From contig OY969699.1 of NCBI GenBank assembly GCA_963702025.1, forward strand, positions 1,152,001-1,216,000: a DNA stretch of 64,000 bases, given 5' to 3'. Source of the DNA: an uncultured bacterium (GTDB lineage Bacteria; Babelota; Babeliae; Babelales; Vermiphilaceae). Each line of letters begins with the position of its first letter. Position 1 is the first letter of the stretch. Below are positions 23,415-62,195 of this stretch, piece by piece. The notes under the pieces are model-generated. The model was not told where the DNA came from. It was given only the letters and a program-made list of their open reading frames with translations, and made no database searches. The translations under genes were made by a program, and so were the position numbers.

Positions 23415-23690
23415 TACTACGCCTATGTGGGCCTTCCTATTTCGCCAAGGCTTCGTCGGACGAGTCCGGTTCGCTTGCACTTCGAAGCTCGAAGAGCAAA
23501 GTAGTGGCAAGCTACGCCTGGCTATCGCCAGTTAAGGAAAATTATATTTTTCCGCTCATCCTGAGGAGCAGCTGAAAGCTGCGTCTCGAAGGACGTATGG
23601 CACGGCCAGTTAAGGTAAAATTTATTAAAAAGCGGAGTTTATCCTGAGCGAGCTTTGCGAGTCGAAGGGCCTGGCTATCGCCAGTTAAGA
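23415..23690. repeat. Composite palindromic repeat cluster at the tRNA-His 3' end
   Basis: Three units end in TGGC-N4/5-GCCAGTTAAG (GCCAGTTAAG at 23527, 23605 and 23680). Contains TGAG…TCGAA palindromes at 23552-23593 and 23637-23669. Confidence 0.85.
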
Positions 23691-41801: not shown

Positions 41802-41843
41802 TCCTTCGATACGAAAACTGCGTTTTCTACTCAGGATGAGCGG
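41802..41843 (-). repeat. REP-like TGAG/TCGAA palindrome
   Basis: Reverse complement CCGCTCATCCTGAGTA-GAAAAC-GCA-GTTTTC-GTATCGAAGGA. Confidence 0.85.
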
Positions 41844-43243: not shown

Positions 43244-44089
43244 ATGAAAATAACAAAGGTAATTATCCCGGCGGCAGGATGGGGAACACGATTTTTGCCT
43301 TTCACCAAAGCAGTGCCCAAAGAGATGGTACCGCTGTTGAATAAACCGGCGATTCAGTACATTGTGCAAGAAGCGGTTGATTCTGGGATAAATAACTGCA
43401 TTGTGATAACGTCTGCCCATAAACAGGCGCTTATTAATTACTTTAGTCCGCAACCAGCACTTGAGGGTTTTTTACAAGAAAAAAATAAACTTTCATTACT
43501 TACTGGGTTACAAAATCTGTGCAATTCAGTAACCATGGGCTATATCATACAAGAAACAGCGCTCGGTTTAGGTCACGCGGTTGGCCTTGCCAAAAATAAG
43601 ATCACTGATGATTATTGTGCCGTTATGCTGCCCGATGACATTATGGTGAGTACCCCCCCGGCACTCGCGCAACTGATAACAATTGCGCAAACCTACAAAG
43701 CAAGCGTTATTGCCGTGCAAGAAGTGCCTGATAATGCCGTTTCTTCCTATGGCATTGTTGCGATAAAAAAGCAGATTGAGCCCGGGATTTTTGAGGTTAG
43801 TAGCGTTGTTGAAAAACCCACGGTGGCAAATGCGCCGTCACGGCTTGCTATTATTGGCAGATACATACTTTCTCAAAAAATATTTAAAGCACTAGATGAA
43901 CTTAAACCGGCAGCAAACGGTGAAATACAGTTAACCGATGCAATCGCTTCATTAATCGCCAGCGGTGAAAAAGTCCTTGCCTACACGGTACAGGGAACTC
44001 GGTACGATGTAGGAACTCCTCACGGCTGGCTCACTGCCAATAGGGACATGGCACGTCACAATCCAGCATTTTCAGATATTTTCGAATAA
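43244..44089 (+). CDS. galU: UTP--glucose-1-phosphate uridylyltransferase
   Basis: IPAAGWGTRFLPFTKAVPKEM, LGLGHAV, VVEKP, GEIQLTDAI. Confidence 0.93.
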   Translation: MKITKVIIPAAGWGTRFLPFTKAVPKEMVPLLNKPAIQYIVQEAVDSGINNCIVITSAHKQALINYFSPQPALEGFLQEKNKLSLLTGLQNLCNSVTMGYIIQETALGLGHAVGLAKNKITDDYCAVMLPDDIMVSTPPALAQLITIAQTYKASVIAVQEVPDNAVSSYGIVAIKKQIEPGIFEVSSVVEKPTVANAPSRLAIIGRYILSQKIFKALDELKPAANGEIQLTDAIASLIASGEKVLAYTVQGTRYDVGTPHGWLTANRDMARHNPAFSDIFE

Positions 44090-44094
44090 AAACA

Positions 44095-44133
44095 CCCTAC
44101 GATACGCGTTAAACCGCTACTCAGGGCAAACGG
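44095..44133 (-). repeat. REP-like TGAG/TCGAA palindrome (diverged)
   Basis: Reverse complement CCGTTTGCCCTGAGTA-GCG-GTTTAA-CGC-GTATCGTAGGG, 5 bp after the galU stop. Confidence 0.75.
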
Positions 44134-48492: not shown

Positions 48493-49728
48493 ATGAAAAA
48501 TAAAATAATCCTCCTCACACTCGGCATAATTTTTCCCTTTAGCATTAGTGCTATTAATTGGACCCCCTTTGCAAATTTTGTTAATCAAATTGAAAAACGT
48601 GACCTGGCAATCGGTGCTGTGACCCTGACGGTTGGTGGTCTAAGCGGGGTTCTTATCAACAATAAGTATAATGCCAATGCACTTGCACTTGAAAATTTAA
48701 AAATCAAACAAAATAAAGAAAAACAAATAGAACTCCGCAAAAAACAAGAAGAAGAAAAAGCTGAACGGATCAAGCAAGAAGAACAAGACAGAAAAAATAA
48801 AATTGAACAACAAAAAAAGGATGCGCACAGTTTGCTTGATCATATAAAAAATCATTATAACCAGCAGTTTTCTCTTCTAGCATCAGAAAGGCTTGATCAT
48901 GATAAGCAAGCTTTTATTAATAGCATAAGAAGTATGTATAACAGTCGGCCATTTTTAACGTTTTATCAGTCTCTTGAAACGGATATATTACAGTTAAAAG
49001 CCGCGGAAAATATCATACCAGAAAAAGAAACGGTACGAATCGAGCTTGCTGAGAAACTCGAAAAAATAAAAAATAACTACAATCTTATGCTTGCTGACCA
49101 TCAGGAAATTGAGCAACAGAAAAACGATCAATTAAAAAGGCTCGCTGAAGAACATCAACGCAAAAAACAAAAAGAAGATCTTGAGCTTGAGAAAATACGT
49201 AATGACGAACGTTTTAAAAAAAATAAAGAAGAGATGGAGCTTGAAAAATTACGAATCGAGCAACGGCATGCGCGAGAAAAAGCGCAATTAGAGCTTGAAA
49301 AGCTTCATGCAGAAATTGCGTATTACAAAACATCTAAGCAGGATATAACCAAAGAACTCGAGGCAATTAAACACGAACTAAAAAACCGTGACAAAATGCA
49401 ACCGTCATGGGCAGCAGAATTTACGCGACTCATAAAAGATGAGATTACGACATTAAAAAAACGTATGGACACGGTGGAAAATTCAATCGTTGGCAATATT
49501 GCGAGTTTCAAAAAAGATGTTGCTGATGTTAAAAAAGATGTTAGAGATTTCAAGCAAATCCTTGAAAAAAATCAGCCACAGTCATATATATTGCCACCGC
49601 CCTATAATCCAGCGGCACAGCAACCATACAATTCACCAGTTCCGTCACATCAACCACCACCAAGTTTTGGGTATGGTGAAACACAAACTAACCCGGACAT
49701 GGTAGCCATTCCGGTGCCAAGAAGCTAG
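48493..49728 (+). CDS. Exported coiled-coil protein with Pro-rich tail
   Basis: Signal peptide, TM, long K/E/Q coiled coil with repeated LELEK, tail LPPPYNP…QPPPSF. Confidence 0.8.
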   Translation: MKNKIILLTLGIIFPFSISAINWTPFANFVNQIEKRDLAIGAVTLTVGGLSGVLINNKYNANALALENLKIKQNKEKQIELRKKQEEEKAERIKQEEQDRKNKIEQQKKDAHSLLDHIKNHYNQQFSLLASERLDHDKQAFINSIRSMYNSRPFLTFYQSLETDILQLKAAENIIPEKETVRIELAEKLEKIKNNYNLMLADHQEIEQQKNDQLKRLAEEHQRKKQKEDLELEKIRNDERFKKNKEEMELEKLRIEQRHAREKAQLELEKLHAEIAYYKTSKQDITKELEAIKHELKNRDKMQPSWAAEFTRLIKDEITTLKKRMDTVENSIVGNIASFKKDVADVKKDVRDFKQILEKNQPQSYILPPPYNPAAQQPYNSPVPSHQPPPSFGYGETQTNPDMVAIPVPRS

Positions 49729-49774
49729 TGTAGTAATTAAGGCTTAAGATAAAAACTAGAGACACAATTGAAAA

Positions 49775-49828
49775 AGGCCGCTCGTGGTGAGTAGGCTCTG
49801 CAAGAGCCGTATCGAATCCATGCGGCCT
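49775..49828 (+). repeat. Left palindrome flanking the GIY-YIG gene
   Basis: AGGCCGC-TCGTGGTGAGTA-GGCTCT-GCA-AGAGCC-GTATCGAATCCAT-GCGGCCT. Confidence 0.9.
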
Positions 49829-49844
49829 AAAAATTTAAGATATT

Positions 49845-50132
49845 ATGAATTGCTTTTATGTATATATTTTAAGATGCAATGATAGCTCTTATTATGTCGG
49901 ACATACTGATAATATTGAAAAAAGAATTGCAGAGCATGTCTCAGGTTCTTATCCCGGTTATACACAAACGCGTTTACCTATAGAGCTTGTTTATATGCAA
50001 GAGTTTGCAAGCCGTGATGAAGCCCTCAACGCAGAACATCAAATAAAGAAATGGAATCGAAAGAAAAAGGAAGCACTTATTGACAATGATTGGAACTCTT
50101 TAAAATTGTTAGCGAAAAAGAAATTCTATTGA
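49845..50132 (+). CDS. Stand-alone GIY-YIG nuclease (UPF0213/YhbQ-like)
   Basis: FYVYIL…YYVGHT…R…H…YT…P.ELVY…A…E.QIK.W.R.KKEAL; the catalytic Tyr, Arg and Glu positions are present. Confidence 0.93.
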   Translation: MNCFYVYILRCNDSSYYVGHTDNIEKRIAEHVSGSYPGYTQTRLPIELVYMQEFASRDEALNAEHQIKKWNRKKKEALIDNDWNSLKLLAKKKFY

Positions 50133-50144
50133 TGAATGTTTATT

Positions 50145-50198
50145 AAACCCGCATGGTTCGATATGATTGCTTCGCAATCACTCACCACGAGCGGGTTT
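50145..50198 (-). repeat. Right palindrome flanking the GIY-YIG gene (inverted relative to left copy)
   Basis: Reverse complement AAACCCGC-TCGTGGTGAG-TGATTGC-GAA-GCAATCA-TATCGAACCAT-GCGGGTTT. Confidence 0.9.
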
Positions 50199-50240
50199 TA
50201 TGATTAACTTTTACAATTCTTACCTTGAAGATAATCTTAT

Positions 50241-51920
50241 CTACTTTCTATTTGCTTGCCGTGCAATACAGGCAACAATAAATCCCTCAAAAAGCGGGCT
50301 TGGGTTTCCAAGCCTGCTTTTAAATTCAGGATGTGCTTGGGTGGCAATAAAAAATGGATGGTCCGCAATTTCTAAAAATTCCATTAAGCGTGTGCCATCA
50401 TGCCGTTCATGATAACCGGAAAATGTAATGCCTTTTTGTTCCAGCACATCAACATACACCGGATTCACTTCATAGCGATGACGGTGCCGTTCATTCACGA
50501 CATATTTTTCCTCGTAATACTCTACTTTATTAGCTTTTGCGTAGAGTTGCGCCACTTTACTTTCTTTTTTTACGGTGGCCGCATACCCGCCAAGCCGCAT
50601 CGAGCCACCGATAGAATGCTCGGCAAGCATCTGTTTTTGGGTAGGTAAAATGTCGATAATAGGAAATTCAGTAGCATCATTCACTTCTGTGGTATGTGCC
50701 GTTTTTAAATTGCAACTAGTGCGCGCAAATTCAACGGCAGCCAGCTGCATGCCATAACAAAGTCCCAGATAAGGAATATTATTGTGCCGAACATAGCCGA
50801 TTGTAGAAATCTTTCCTTCCACGCCAGCACTGCCAAAGCCACCGGGAATAATTACCCCATCAAAAAGAGCAAGTATCTTGAGCTGCTCAAGATTCGTTGT
50901 TTCAAACATCTGCGCATTGATCCAATTAATTTCAATGCCAATATTATGCTGCGCCCCGGCATGTACCAATGCCTGATAAATGCTCACATAACTATCAGTG
51001 AGACTAAAATCACCAATGTCCAAATATTTACCCACAATAGCAATTTTGACTTTATAGGATGGATTTTTGATTGCGTTAACCAATCCGTTCCACCTTTGCC
51101 AATCCGGCACTCTTTTAGATGGTAAATGGAAATGGCGCAACACTTTTTGCCCGAGTTGCTCACGTTCCAGGTAGAGGGGCATTTCGTACACCGTATCGAT
51201 ATCAGGCGCAGAGATAATTTGATCTGCATGCACATAAGAACATTGTTCTATCTTTTTCTTGCGAATTTCATCAAGCGGCTGCTTTGCACGGCAAATGATA
51301 AAATCAGGCAAAATTCCTTCTTGCCCCAGAAGCCGTACGGCTTGTTGCGTCGGTTTTGTCTTCATCTCTTGCATATGATCAGGAATCGGCAAGTAGGTGA
51401 CCAACACATAGGCGATACTGTCAGCGCCAAGTTCCCGCTCTAAACCTTTGATTGCAAATAAAAATGGCACGTTTTCATAATCACCGACGGTGCCCCCCAA
51501 TTCTATAATGGCAATCTCATAGCCTGCTGATGCATCTAGGATGCGGCGTTTAACTTCATCCAAAATATGGGGCATAAATTGTACCGTTTGGCCCAAATAT
51601 TCGCCACGTCGTTCACGATCAATAACCGTCTTATAAATTTGGCCGGTGGTTATGTTATTTTTCTTGGGGATATCTTCATCTAAAAATCGTTCATAGGTAC
51701 CCAAATCTTGGTCAATTTCGCCGCCATCTTCTGTTACCCAGACTTCGCCATGTTCCGTGGGCCTCAAAGTCCCTGCGTCGTAATTGATATACGGATCAAT
51801 CTTAATTAAGGTGGTTTTATACCCATGTTCTTTTAAAATCTTGCCCAAGGATGCCGTGGTTACGCCTTTGCCAACCCCGGAAATAACTCCTCCTGCAACA
51901 ACAATAAATTTTGTATTCAT
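50241..51920 (-). CDS. pyrG: CTP synthase
   Basis: GGVISGVGKG, KIDPYIN, HGEV, KTKPTQ, GLCYGMQ, RHRHRYE, QAHPEF. Confidence 0.98.
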   Translation of the reverse strand: MNTKFIVVAGGVISGVGKGVTTASLGKILKEHGYKTTLIKIDPYINYDAGTLRPTEHGEVWVTEDGGEIDQDLGTYERFLDEDIPKKNNITTGQIYKTVIDRERRGEYLGQTVQFMPHILDEVKRRILDASAGYEIAIIELGGTVGDYENVPFLFAIKGLERELGADSIAYVLVTYLPIPDHMQEMKTKPTQQAVRLLGQEGILPDFIICRAKQPLDEIRKKKIEQCSYVHADQIISAPDIDTVYEMPLYLEREQLGQKVLRHFHLPSKRVPDWQRWNGLVNAIKNPSYKVKIAIVGKYLDIGDFSLTDSYVSIYQALVHAGAQHNIGIEINWINAQMFETTNLEQLKILALFDGVIIPGGFGSAGVEGKISTIGYVRHNNIPYLGLCYGMQLAAVEFARTSCNLKTAHTTEVNDATEFPIIDILPTQKQMLAEHSIGGSMRLGGYAATVKKESKVAQLYAKANKVEYYEEKYVVNERHRHRYEVNPVYVDVLEQKGITFSGYHERHDGTRLMEFLEIADHPFFIATQAHPEFKSRLGNPSPLFEGFIVACIARQANRK

Positions 51921-53502: not shown

Positions 53503-54291
53503 TTAGCCTTTTGGAACCGGCTGTTGAAGTGCGTCAGAACCGCTTATTTTTGCGCGTTTTAGCATTTCTGCTTTATTATTTTTAAATGTTCGTTGATCAG
53601 CATCTGCTTGGATATATTCTCTTGCAGCCCCATCACTAAATACTGCTTGATAAATCTGATTACCTGGCTTGTTAGGATCTGGAGACGTACGTATTTCAAA
53701 GCCAATTACATTTGCCGGAAGAATTGTTTCTCTTCCCAAAAAGTTTTTTATTTTCTTAGCACCAACGCTCGCTAATACGGCACCTTCATGGAGTGGTACT
53801 AAATTATCATGTAACGTTACAATAACGTAATAGACGTCTCCGGTTCTCCATTCAGCAAATCTCCCACTGTTTCCACGAGGAACATCTGGGTGGAATGCAT
53901 TGGTTTCACCACGGTGTAAACGACCAAGAAGATCTTGTATTTGGGTTCCGAACACTTGGTTAGCCAATTTTAACGTTTCTGCAGTCAAATTAAGTCCGCC
54001 AGCAAATGCCATTGAAAATCCTACTGTTGGACCTGCAAGGATTACTCCTAGCGGCATACTTACACCCTTAGCTTTATCAAGAACGTCCACAATGGTATCT
54101 GGAACATGTAATGTAAGTGCGTATGCTTTATGCTGTTTCATCGCATCAGCGGCGCTATTTGCTTTATAGGCATAAATATCAACTGCTGGGAGCACACTAC
54201 CACTTCCATGGACAATCGCATACGCTTGCATTAAAGACCCGGTACATAAAAGCAGGGCCACGCTCATTATTTTTACAAAAGATGGCTTCAT
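53503..54291 (-). CDS. Secreted hypothetical protein, tandem copy A
   Basis: AAGGA RBS, signal peptide, 262 aa. Confidence 0.8.
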   Translation of the reverse strand: MKPSFVKIMSVALLLCTGSLMQAYAIVHGSGSVLPAVDIYAYKANSAADAMKQHKAYALTLHVPDTIVDVLDKAKGVSMPLGVILAGPTVGFSMAFAGGLNLTAETLKLANQVFGTQIQDLLGRLHRGETNAFHPDVPRGNSGRFAEWRTGDVYYVIVTLHDNLVPLHEGAVLASVGAKKIKNFLGRETILPANVIGFEIRTSPDPNKPGNQIYQAVFSDGAAREYIQADADQRTFKNNKAEMLKRAKISGSDALQQPVPKG

Positions 54292-54377
54292 TTTTTCCTT
54301 TTTTGATTTAAAAATACTACTCGAGAAAAAGGCCCGTATTGCTACGAGCCTTCATAATTAAAGAAGCAGATTATATA

Positions 54378-55166
54378 TTAGCCTTTTGGAACTGGTTGTT
54401 CAAGTGCGTCAGAACCGCTTATTTTTGCGCGTTTTAGCATTTCTGCTTTATTATTTTTAAATGTTCGTTGATCAGCATCTGCTTGGATATATTCTCTTGC
54501 AGCCCCATCACTAAATACTGCTTGATAAATCTGATTACCTGGCTTGTTAGGATCTGGAGACGTACGTATTTCAAAGCCAATTACATTTGCCGGAAGAATT
54601 GTTTCTCTTCCCAAAAAGTTTTTTATTTTCTTAGCACCAACGCTTGCCAATACGGCACCTTCATGGAGTGGTACTAAATTATCATGTAACGTTACAATAA
54701 CGTAATAGACGTCTCCGGTTCTCCATTCAGCAAATCTCCCACTGTTTCCACGAGGAACATCTGGGTGGAATGCATTGGTTTCACCACGGTGTAAACGACC
54801 GAGAAGGCCTTGTATTTGGGTTCCAAACATTTTATTCGCTTCTATTAAGACCTTTGCGGTGATATCGAATCCTTGAGCAACGGCAACTGAAAATCCTTCA
54901 GTTGGACCGGCAAGAGCTGCCCCTATTGGCGCACTTACACCCTTTGCTACCTCTAACACGTCTGCGACTGCACCTGGAACACTTAATGTAAGTGCATAAG
55001 CTTTATGCTGCCTGATTGCATCCTTGGCATCTTTAGCTTTGTAGGCATAAATATCAACTGCAGGAAGCGCACTCCCGCTTCCATGAACAATAGCATACCC
55101 ATGTAATAATGGTCCGGCAAACAAGAGCAATCCAACGCTCCATGTTTTTAGAAATAATAACTTCAT
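54378..55166 (-). CDS. Secreted hypothetical protein, tandem copy B
   Basis: AAGGAG RBS, signal peptide, 262 aa; C-terminal half nearly identical to copy A. Confidence 0.8.
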   Translation of the reverse strand: MKLLFLKTWSVGLLLFAGPLLHGYAIVHGSGSALPAVDIYAYKAKDAKDAIRQHKAYALTLSVPGAVADVLEVAKGVSAPIGAALAGPTEGFSVAVAQGFDITAKVLIEANKMFGTQIQGLLGRLHRGETNAFHPDVPRGNSGRFAEWRTGDVYYVIVTLHDNLVPLHEGAVLASVGAKKIKNFLGRETILPANVIGFEIRTSPDPNKPGNQIYQAVFSDGAAREYIQADADQRTFKNNKAEMLKRAKISGSDALEQPVPKG

Positions 55167-55251: not shown

Positions 55252-56481
55252 CTGAAGTTCGGACATAAATAGAAGAGACTCCTGTTCTGGTGTATTTTTA
55301 AAAAAAACAAAGAAACACCAAAAACAGGAGAATCATGATTGCCAAAAAAGATATCATAAAAATGATTAATTCGCTAAAAGTATTTAACATTCATGTTGCC
55401 GACTTCATCGGATCGATGATTTGGGGGTTCCAACAAGCAAAAAAGCTTAGAATTTCCAGCATTTCTGCTGCATCACCCGGCAAGTATGAATCTAACTATA
55501 AAAACATCACAAGATCTCTAAATAAATTAGAAGTTTCTCAGCTTTCAGAAGCTCTTTTGTCATTTCAGGACCAAGCGAGTGATATCCTATTGCTCGATTT
55601 TACTGAGATGACTCGAAAAAATGCTAAACGCACTGCTTATATTGGATATTTAAAAGATGGAGAAACACTTGGCTACAGCATATTGGCACTGAGTGTACCA
55701 TTCAAAGGAAGATCTAAAATAATATTTGCTGATGTAATATCTTCTTCAATCATTGCTGAGAGCGCAACTGGAAAGTGGAAGCTTATTCAAGAAGCTTTAC
55801 GCCCATTAATTCCTTTGCTTCAGAGTAAGATAATTGTCATTGATCGTGAACTTTGCAATGAGGAGATGATCAAGTTCTTTCATAAACATCAAATTCATTA
55901 TTCAATACGCTTAAAAATAAGTGCTGGAAAAAACCAAATTATTATTACTGACAAAAAAGGCAGCAGGATTAACATTTCTATTACTCGCGGCTCAAAGAAA
56001 AATTGGAAAGGGGTTTATTATAAAGGGAAAATCAAAGTAAATATTGCTGCTGAATGGCAAAGCAATATGCCTGAGCCAATGTATATAATTACAGATTGTC
56101 AGCCAAGTGAAGGTTTAAAATACTATAAAAAACGCATGAAAATAGAGGAAAGTTTCAAAGATATAAAAGATAAATTGGGCTTTACAAAAATCATGAATAA
56201 AACTTTAGGCAATCTCCTTAAAATGCTCCTCATTGGATTAATTGCCTACAATCTATTGATTTTGATAGGCGAAATGCTGCGATTACAAGTGCTCACGAAG
56301 CGCGAAAGGCTTAAGTTCAGCGGTTTGCATTTATTGCTTAATATGATTTATTCATATTCTCGATCCAAACTTCGGAAAGCACTACGTCAAGTTGAATTCC
56401 ATCTGCTTGAAAATAATTCAGATGATGTTGTTTGGTTAAGAGCCTTTAGGAATTGTTAAAATGAAATTGTCCGAACTTAAG
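55252..56481 (+). mobile_element. IS4-family insertion sequence (1230 bp)
   Basis: TIRs CTGAAGTTCGGACA (55252-55265) and TGTCCGAACTTAAG (56468-56481), 13/14 match; TTGAAT direct repeat on both sides (55246-55251, 56482-56487). Confidence 0.9.
55335..56459 (+). CDS. IS4-family DDE transposase
   Basis: LLDFTE, IVIDRE, YKKRMKIEESFKDIK (YREK signature); AGGAG RBS. Confidence 0.9.
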   Translation: MIAKKDIIKMINSLKVFNIHVADFIGSMIWGFQQAKKLRISSISAASPGKYESNYKNITRSLNKLEVSQLSEALLSFQDQASDILLLDFTEMTRKNAKRTAYIGYLKDGETLGYSILALSVPFKGRSKIIFADVISSSIIAESATGKWKLIQEALRPLIPLLQSKIIVIDRELCNEEMIKFFHKHQIHYSIRLKISAGKNQIIITDKKGSRINISITRGSKKNWKGVYYKGKIKVNIAAEWQSNMPEPMYIITDCQPSEGLKYYKKRMKIEESFKDIKDKLGFTKIMNKTLGNLLKMLLIGLIAYNLLILIGEMLRLQVLTKRERLKFSGLHLLLNMIYSYSRSKLRKALRQVEFHLLENNSDDVVWLRAFRNC

Positions 56482-62118: not shown

Positions 62119-62195
62119 TCCTTCGACGAGCTCAGGACGAACGGTTAGGGAGTCCGTTCGTGGTGAGTGATGCCGAAGGCATCGTATCGAACCAT
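62119..62195. repeat. Inverted doublet of REP-like palindromes (REPIN-like)
   Basis: TCCTTCGACGAGCTCAGGACGAACGG (62119-62144, minus), a 9-bp spacer, then CCGTTCGTGGTGAGT-GATGCC-GAA-GGCATC-GTATCGAACCAT (62154-62195). Confidence 0.88.

Follow-up and report, generated by a model that had tools for sequence, protein, structure and literature searches.

The pairing of a clade of small GIY-YIG nucleases with one class of oriented hairpin repeat is general and well supported, and, judged from sequence, the enzyme and its hairpin likely constitute a second Ssn-like system that forms a separate group across phyla. The locus from which the analysis started lies in the window, by which we mean the whole stretch of 64,000 nucleotides that was analysed, in a genome of 1.6 Mb with 39% GC that is 95% complete. 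The preliminary description of this DNA had proposed a candidate RAYT-like system run by a GIY-YIG enzyme. The pairing itself is real, but the general idea was already contained in Chenal et al. 2025 (PMC11893778), where NTS-ssnA-NTS is likened to IS200/REP systems and the comparison with RAYT/REP is drawn. In the same paper the Ssn family is defined as the cd10448 clade with many predicted enzyme-hairpin pairs. SsnA binds the NTS hairpin as single-stranded DNA only and cuts a few bases upstream of it; it lowers transformation and, in vivo, the integration of NTS-bearing DNA, mobilisation not being shown for SsnA there (PMC11893778).

The 95-aa ORF described earlier as a GIY-YIG protein with its catalytic positions proved to be exactly that. 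It is matched by the Pfam model PF01541 at an E value of 1.8e-20 and contains Y7, Y17, G19, R27, H31 and E64, all of which are invariant in 27/27 aligned homologues. The AlphaFold model, with a mean pLDDT of 92, has the three-strand, helix-flanked fold of GIY-YIG domains. Its closest structures are the UPF0213 (YazA/YhbQ) proteins 1zg2 and 1ywl, followed by SLX1, and UPF0213 proteins are also the best sequence matches (E 3.6e-17). A size of ~95-100 aa together with the catalytic Tyr, Tyr and Glu, a feature of Ssn (cd10448), is present as well. In NCBIfam, no model scored over the cut-off for any of 9 small GIY-YIG proteins. Hairpins still flank two defective genes at G000:C1 164689-165114 and 1332218-1332500, a copy cut short at its 5' end (91% identical) and a paralogue with a frameshift.

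The two inverted hairpins around the gene and the gaps of 16 bp (left) and 12 bp (right) that separate them from the ORF, as read from the sequence, were confirmed. DNA folding gave z values of −4.4 for the left and −4.7 for the right hairpin, and 0/200 shuffles folded as well. The left hairpin carries a single bulged T after the TCGAA core and for this reason misses the strict repeat pattern given below. The unit, put at about 424 bp in the preliminary description, turned out to be longer: conserved arms and eroded ends of IS982 type extend it to about 49740-50237, which fills nearly all of the space between two convergent stop codons. That no obvious target duplication is present holds for the window copy, where 4/6 positions match, but not for its gene-less siblings, which do carry duplications. 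Rfam gave no match at E 1 within 49600-50400. Elsewhere in the window a 374-aa DDE transposase (PF01609, E 2.7e-12) is encoded at 55335-56459, and at 53503-55166 two tandem 262-aa genes share a 98%-identical stretch of 300 nt; one of them was scanned and had no Pfam match.

Table 1. Features at the nuclease locus and further repeat copies in the window
Feature	Position	Strand	Remarks
Repeat copy, ATCC/GGAC stem variant	23556..23590	+	loose pattern
Repeat copy, headless variant	23639..23666	+	loose pattern
Repeat copy	41805..41839	-	loose pattern
Degenerate repeat copy	44081..44129	-	loose pattern
Left neighbour, 411-aa ORF	48493..49728	+	no Pfam match
Candidate left half of eroded 6-bp target duplication	49734..49739	.	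4/6 identical to 50238-50243
Left arm	49740..49777	+	eroded IS982-type terminal repeat (49740-49755) and arm common to gene-less MITE copies
Left hairpin repeat	49775..49828	+	head CCGCTC at 49778-49783 away from gene; tail towards gene
GIY-YIG nuclease gene, 95 aa, single-domain	49845..50132	+	ORF, Pfam, alignment, tree, predicted structure
Right hairpin repeat	50145..50198	-	inverted; head away from gene
Right arm	50195..50237	-	shared arm and eroded IS982-type terminal repeat (50217-50237)
Candidate right half of eroded 6-bp target duplication	50238..50243	.	overlaps pyrG stop codon
Right neighbour, presumably a pyrG-like CTP synthase gene (named from the sequence)	50241..51920	-	outside the element
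Head-to-head repeat dimer without gene	62122..62191	.	62122-62140 minus, 62158-62191 plus

The hairpin belongs to an abundant repeat family. The strict pattern CRYSSTGAG-N2-30-TCGAASS occurs 148 times in the genome, its backward reading 0 times, and the following statistics rest on 146 non-overlapping copies. The SS/SS stem positions are complementary in 143/146 copies (shuffled mean 59, maximum 80), and the inner hairpin folds in 102/108 long loops (shuffled mean 33). One of two heads, CCGCTC (56/146) or CCGTTC (54/146), is present in 110 copies, and the TGAG/TCGAA core would pair as T-A, two G-A mismatches and G-C. Pairs are head-to-head in 19 cases and head-out in 21, and 66 copies are unpaired. 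Three nuclease paralogue types are found in the genome, each accompanied by a different repeat variant; the variants lie scattered over 27, 21 and 9 places, with 0 in the controls. Within the window, where the same palindrome had been reported at six other positions, the loose pattern indeed gave six more places; these are members of the family, however, and the stem variant is the same only at 62154. Headless copies preceded by GGAG were observed at 17 places in the genome (G000), including 23633-23668 of the window, some of them nested in the loop of another copy. That the nested copies arose by insertion into hairpin loops is at most a possibility, as only 4/17 have a flanking stem of at least 4 bp in a simple count. 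In other genomes the TGAG-TCGAA repeat is also abundant: a Dehalococcoidia genome has 424 copies, one of Sphingomonadales 124 and one alphaproteobacterium 208. A RAYT was rejected as mobiliser of the repeats, none being found in the 95%-complete genome (0 PF01797 matches).

Homologues of the nuclease were collected from relatives, GTDB, metagenomes and viral loci. At a cut-off of at least 80 bits against a profile of 27 sequences, 118 distinct proteins were obtained, of which 109 remained after 9 with short flanks had been dropped; selection was by likeness, and copies from the window's own genome are among them. An inward-facing hairpin within ~160-190 nt (looser pattern) was found on at least one side in 91/109 and on both sides in 67/109, leaving 18/109 without one by pattern. 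Control windows 700 nt away contained a hairpin in 3/167 cases, which bears out the enrichment of the inverted hairpin in homologue flanks anticipated in the preliminary description. Since the looser pattern was set after some of the results had been seen, the counts for the strict pattern are given beside it: 82/109 for at least one side and 56/109 for both. The pairing spans Babelota, Alphaproteobacteria and Chloroflexota and holds at 50-60% protein identity. An evenly drawn sample of 151 Alphaproteobacteria yielded 16 loci, 15 of them new to the set, and of these 12/15 had an inward hairpin, 9 on both sides. Among 150 database representatives chosen without DNA context, 140 have extensions, and in 57/140 the repeat is read through as peptide (shuffled mean 0.7). 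None of the 8 YazA/YhbQ loci and none of the 8 Ssn-type loci carry the hairpin of the clade. Viral spread was considered and set aside, with 1 relative among 46 candidate stretches in IMG/VR.

In many Sphingomonadales-type loci the nuclease is fused in frame to a SpoU/TrmJ methyltransferase through the translated downstream hairpin (L046:1383-2696, L076:1495-2541 and 14 further loci). At one locus each it is fused to a PP-loop TilS-like protein (L055) or a TadA-like deaminase (L098), and by family name the SpoU/TrmJ, TilS-like and TadA-like partners are all tRNA-modifying enzymes. A third pairing concerns SLX1-like small GIY-YIG genes, which have a different hairpin, upstream only, at 8/12 loci, some of them just after tRNA genes (G000:C1 1567658, 1019370 and 1568458; L028-L035); copies of this third hairpin lie in the window near 200-470.

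The cassettes occupy sites in a patchy manner, and the same sites are otherwise empty. Of 30 loci from Babelota-type genomes, 24 do not share both flanks with any other and three pairs share both. The empty sites next to pyrG that had been suggested as a check were found, the cassette being absent there in 8/9 relatives. Direct convergence of pyrG on a gene whose proline-rich tail resembles that of the window's 411-aa neighbour was noted for three congeners (two from tblastn matches, the third from reading the sequence by eye). In one congener the region near pyrG contains two paired hairpins together with a remnant of 22 residues, and also a second nuclease gene that runs the opposite way; this is either a separate insertion or an inversion. 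The nrdR-trmJ junction was compared in 30 genomes of one alphaproteobacterial family, including the centre genome, chosen for its nuclease: the nuclease is present in 3/30 (one of them the centre genome), a lone hairpin in 1/30 and neither in 26/30. Independent origin of the three trmJ cassettes was not retained; they lie dispersed in the TrmJ tree, in which none of the branches is starred. At the same junction, two further loci (L237, L252) carry classic CGTC-type hairpin pairs in genomes from which the clade's repeat is absent. Because CGTC-type pairs occupy this very junction, it is suggested to be a hot spot common to CGTC-type and TGAG-TCGAA hairpins.

Part of the gene-less copies can be traced to another kind of element. 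In head-out pairs of the window's variant, ~40 nt of shared arm extend beyond each head and end in a 20-nt inverted repeat, which has 25 matches in the genome compared to 3 in the control, 21/25 of them beside a hairpin. With 1-2 mismatches, the 20-nt ends agree with those of ~995-bp elements in three relatives (L163-165, L173) that encode a PF13612 protein, which we take to be the IS982 transposase family. The size, AC ends and direct repeats of the ~995-bp elements fit the IS982 family as described by Fayad et al. 2020 (PMC7335449). Likeness to IS982 and derived MITEs as treated there thus comprises the ends starting from AC, the ~1-kb full elements with matching ends in three relatives and duplications of 6-7 bp. 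Unlike IS982 insertion sequences, the ends found here enclose a hairpin pair or a hairpin-nuclease cassette and no transposase, and occur only in the window's lineage.

In 7/8 complete gene-less pairs a 6-7 bp duplication is present at 83% or better, compared to 10/56 crossed pairs. Gene-less spacers align inside the window's cassette above all shuffles in 10/14 cases, one of them marginally; the gene-less pairs are therefore deletion derivatives of a nuclease-bearing element. Their IS982-type ends and target duplications, in turn, indicate that a DDE transposase moved the paired gene-less copies, for which the GIY-YIG enzyme is not needed. The window copy has kept the arms, while its IS982-type ends are eroded and 4/6 positions of a 6-bp duplication remain. 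No intact IS982 was found in the genome, and an active one was rejected, as only one sub-threshold PF13612 match without matching ends was present. This route covers at most ~28/148 copies. It is not a feature of the clade, for 0/124 loci have such an end within ~260 nt at 3 mismatches, and spread of IS982 type is thus local to the window's lineage. An empty and a filled version of the repeat dimer are possibly represented by a 70-bp IS982-type MITE that lacks hairpins (L187, G004:C60) and by another that contains them and resembles it in the right arm (L189, G007:C2), although automatic alignment did not resolve the pair.

The number of repeats was compared with the presence of the gene. Among Alphaproteobacteria, the centre genome and the unpublished G081 being left out, at least 10 repeats are found in 12/13 genomes with the gene (median 32) and in 21/136 without it (median 2). 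In 40 relatives the median was 26 in the 14 genomes with and 1 in the 26 genomes without the gene, and 5/5 relatives with at least 100 copies have it, four of these five belonging to one genus. When the relatives were split at 10 copies, the difference was not significant (p 0.09), and p values overstate here because kin are not independent. Of the gene-bearing relatives, 5/14 have 6 copies or fewer but more than zero, or none by the strict pattern, in part because their repeats are variants. The correlation expected in the preliminary description therefore stands insofar as repeat-rich genomes are enriched for the gene, but in 21/33 alphaproteobacterial genomes that have 10 repeats or more, and in 7/15 such relatives, the gene has neither an intact nor a strong match, with the reservation that genomes in both sets may be incomplete. 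In the repeat-rich Alphaproteobacteria, absence of the gene could reflect loss, incomplete assembly or another mobiliser. The earlier proposal that the nuclease drives the spread of the repeats could not be upheld as stated, given that the paired gene-less copies are explained by IS982-type ends and that many repeat-rich genomes lack the gene.

The reading that we consider somewhat probable is that the nuclease binds and cuts its own hairpin in single-stranded DNA, as SsnA does, and that the cassette is a selfish unit moving through host repair started by the nick. Recognition of the flanking hairpin in single-stranded DNA would follow from analogy with SsnA and from the oriented pairing throughout the clade. 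By the same analogy the cut would be expected a few bases 5' of the hairpin head and, as both heads point outward, two cuts would thus fall just outside the cassette, on opposite strands. GIY-YIG nucleases act hydrolytically, without a covalent intermediate and without the tyrosine-linked strand transfer of RAYT type, and joining must therefore come from host recombination. Repair of the nicked single strands by the host would then seed new repeat copies; this is the weakest step of the scheme, and we put it forward only tentatively, as less probable than the binding and cutting that precede it. In the window's lineage a second route is documented: IS982-type ends came to enclose the cassette, and derivatives of it with internal deletions were spread as MITEs by a DDE transposase.

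Alternatively, the nuclease may recognise the hairpin and yet serve the host, by trimming incoming or replication-exposed single-stranded DNA, the copies being made by other enzymes. We regard this as rather unlikely, though it is the most serious of the alternatives: the lowered integration of NTS-bearing DNA by SsnA, for which mobilisation was not shown (PMC11893778), agrees with it, and so do the many repeat-rich genomes without the gene and the IS982-type ends that account for paired copies in the window's genome. However, a selfish unit better accounts for the several paralogues found in each small genome, the frequency of broken copies and the sites that are not shared, and the gene is itself bracketed by its predicted target.

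How the clade relates to known small GIY-YIG nucleases bears on the remaining alternatives. As an anchor for Ssn in tblastn comparisons we used the N. gonorrhoeae orthologue, which is flanked by SRM, as a stand-in for N. meningitidis SsnA. The 95-aa protein is 31% identical to it at E 4e-6, above the cut-off of the Ssn paper for membership, namely E below 1e-10 over 75% of Neisseria SsnA. In pairwise comparison it scores 77-83 bits with YazA and 39 with the SsnA orthologue. A 42-row tree resolved four groups with support of 94/95 for the clade, 100/99 for Ssn, 95/94 for YazA/YhbQ and 95/83 for SLX1-like proteins; a 74-row tree was computed in its quick version. The clade lies outside the YazA/YhbQ group, and its placement as sister to that group is supported at only 85/64. 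A firm position of the clade with YazA/YhbQ is not supported, and AU tests do not separate the topologies. Unlike those of the clade, YazA/YhbQ genes lie in tight operons without hairpins.

It is improbable, though the UPF0213 matches, the higher YazA scores and the position of the window copy inside IS982-type arms would agree with it, that the enzyme is a YazA/YhbQ-like structure-specific repair nuclease caught between repeats and carried by IS982-type or other recombinases without recognising any sequence. IS982-type ends are missing at all 124 clade loci within the limits given above, and the pairing persists across phyla at 50-60% identity with variants that track protein subtypes, a persistence not expected of a neutral passenger.

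The Ssn group contains the gonococcal orthologue and excludes all 18 clade rows. Against this orthologue, all 8/8 Ssn-type proteins score 85-119 bits, whereas the clade has a median of 43 and a maximum of 54; 6/124 clade loci and 11/150 database homologues pass E 1e-10. The published SRM pattern has no match at the window locus at 0-3 mismatches; the whole genome has 2 matches, both away from the 146 repeats. At homologue loci it was found in 0/109 cases exactly and in 6/109 at one mismatch, which is weak evidence, because the exact pattern finds only 3/8 Ssn-type loci. The SRM and TGAG-TCGAA hairpin classes do not cross over between the nuclease groups. That the clade is plainly a divergent Ssn member with a divergent SRM, and nothing beyond Chenal et al. 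2025, is the least probable of the alternatives, for while the shared size and layout, the few sequences passing the cut-off, the low yield of the exact SRM pattern and AU tests in which uniting the clade with Ssn was not rejected (p 0.70 and 0.51) and gave a tree of slightly higher score speak for it, the closed Ssn group, the gap in scores and the two hairpin classes argue against it.

In its features, the clade thus appears to work like Ssn/NTS in layout, differs in the Ssn membership features that were compared and is no RAYT. Like Ssn (SsnA, Neisseria meningitidis NMB0047; cd10448), it has a ~95-aa single-domain GIY-YIG protein with conserved Tyr, Tyr and Glu, an oriented hairpin repeated in the genome on both sides, and a gene enriched in repeat-rich genomes. 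Its hairpin departs from SRM in the head (CCGYTC), the covarying stem of 4 bp and the TGAG/TCGAA core, and the loop frequently contains a second hairpin. In the supplements of PMC11893778, no mention of cd10456, UPF0213, YhbQ or CTGAG was found. The literature covered, which took in few subscription journals and no figures, yielded no description of the clade or its hairpin; GIY-YIG together with 'repetitive extragenic palindromic' was likewise not found, nor were five 15-nt repeat cores, and SsnA occurred together with GIY-YIG in a single paper.

A comparison with REP systems places the repeat further. REPtrons consist of HUH Y1 transposases with GTAG REPs. Unlike RAYT/REPtron proteins, the protein studied here is a GIY-YIG nuclease and not an HUH Y1 tyrosine transposase, and the genome contains no Y1_Tnp. 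The likeness to REPtrons and RAYT-REPIN systems, which are described in Di Nocera et al. 2013 (PMC3733652), consists in an enzyme gene between inverted REPs, gene-less singles and dimers, and paralogue-specific variants. The same paper states that CGTC REPs are without a dedicated transposase, and GIY is not mentioned in the passages and four supplements searched (PMC3733652). With CGTC-tagged REPs, as presented there, the clade repeat shares an unpaired tag at one end, a stem often starting from AT, a 4-5 nt loop in short copies and head-to-head dimers (PMC3733652), and alphaproteobacterial copies often start with the CCTC tag variant. It differs by its mismatched core and CCGYTC head from the CGTC/TGTC/CCTC tag, 8-9 bp stem and CCA-type tail described for them. 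In Caulobacter, three small COG2827 genes are on record, and no link to repeats is made in the passages concerned (PMC1839093).

Taken as a whole it is possible, albeit doubtful, that the pairing of small GIY-YIG proteins with hairpins arose at least twice and probably thrice (Ssn/SRM, this clade and the SLX1-like genes), and that the clade would drive, as its dedicated enzyme, a REP class that spans phyla and reaches hundreds of copies per genome: a mobile element without a transposase that acts through nick and host repair and can be fused in frame to tRNA-modifying genes. Cassettes can hitch-hike in IS982-type ends, which is a warning against crediting every gene-less pair to the nuclease. 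A second clade with a hairpin outside the SRM pattern offers a new candidate specificity for single-stranded DNA tools, and puts directly to the test whether association with hairpins is the ancestral state of small GIY-YIG proteins. Finally, an abundant REP class of the kind that was said in 2013 to lack a dedicated transposase gains a candidate enzyme in the clade.
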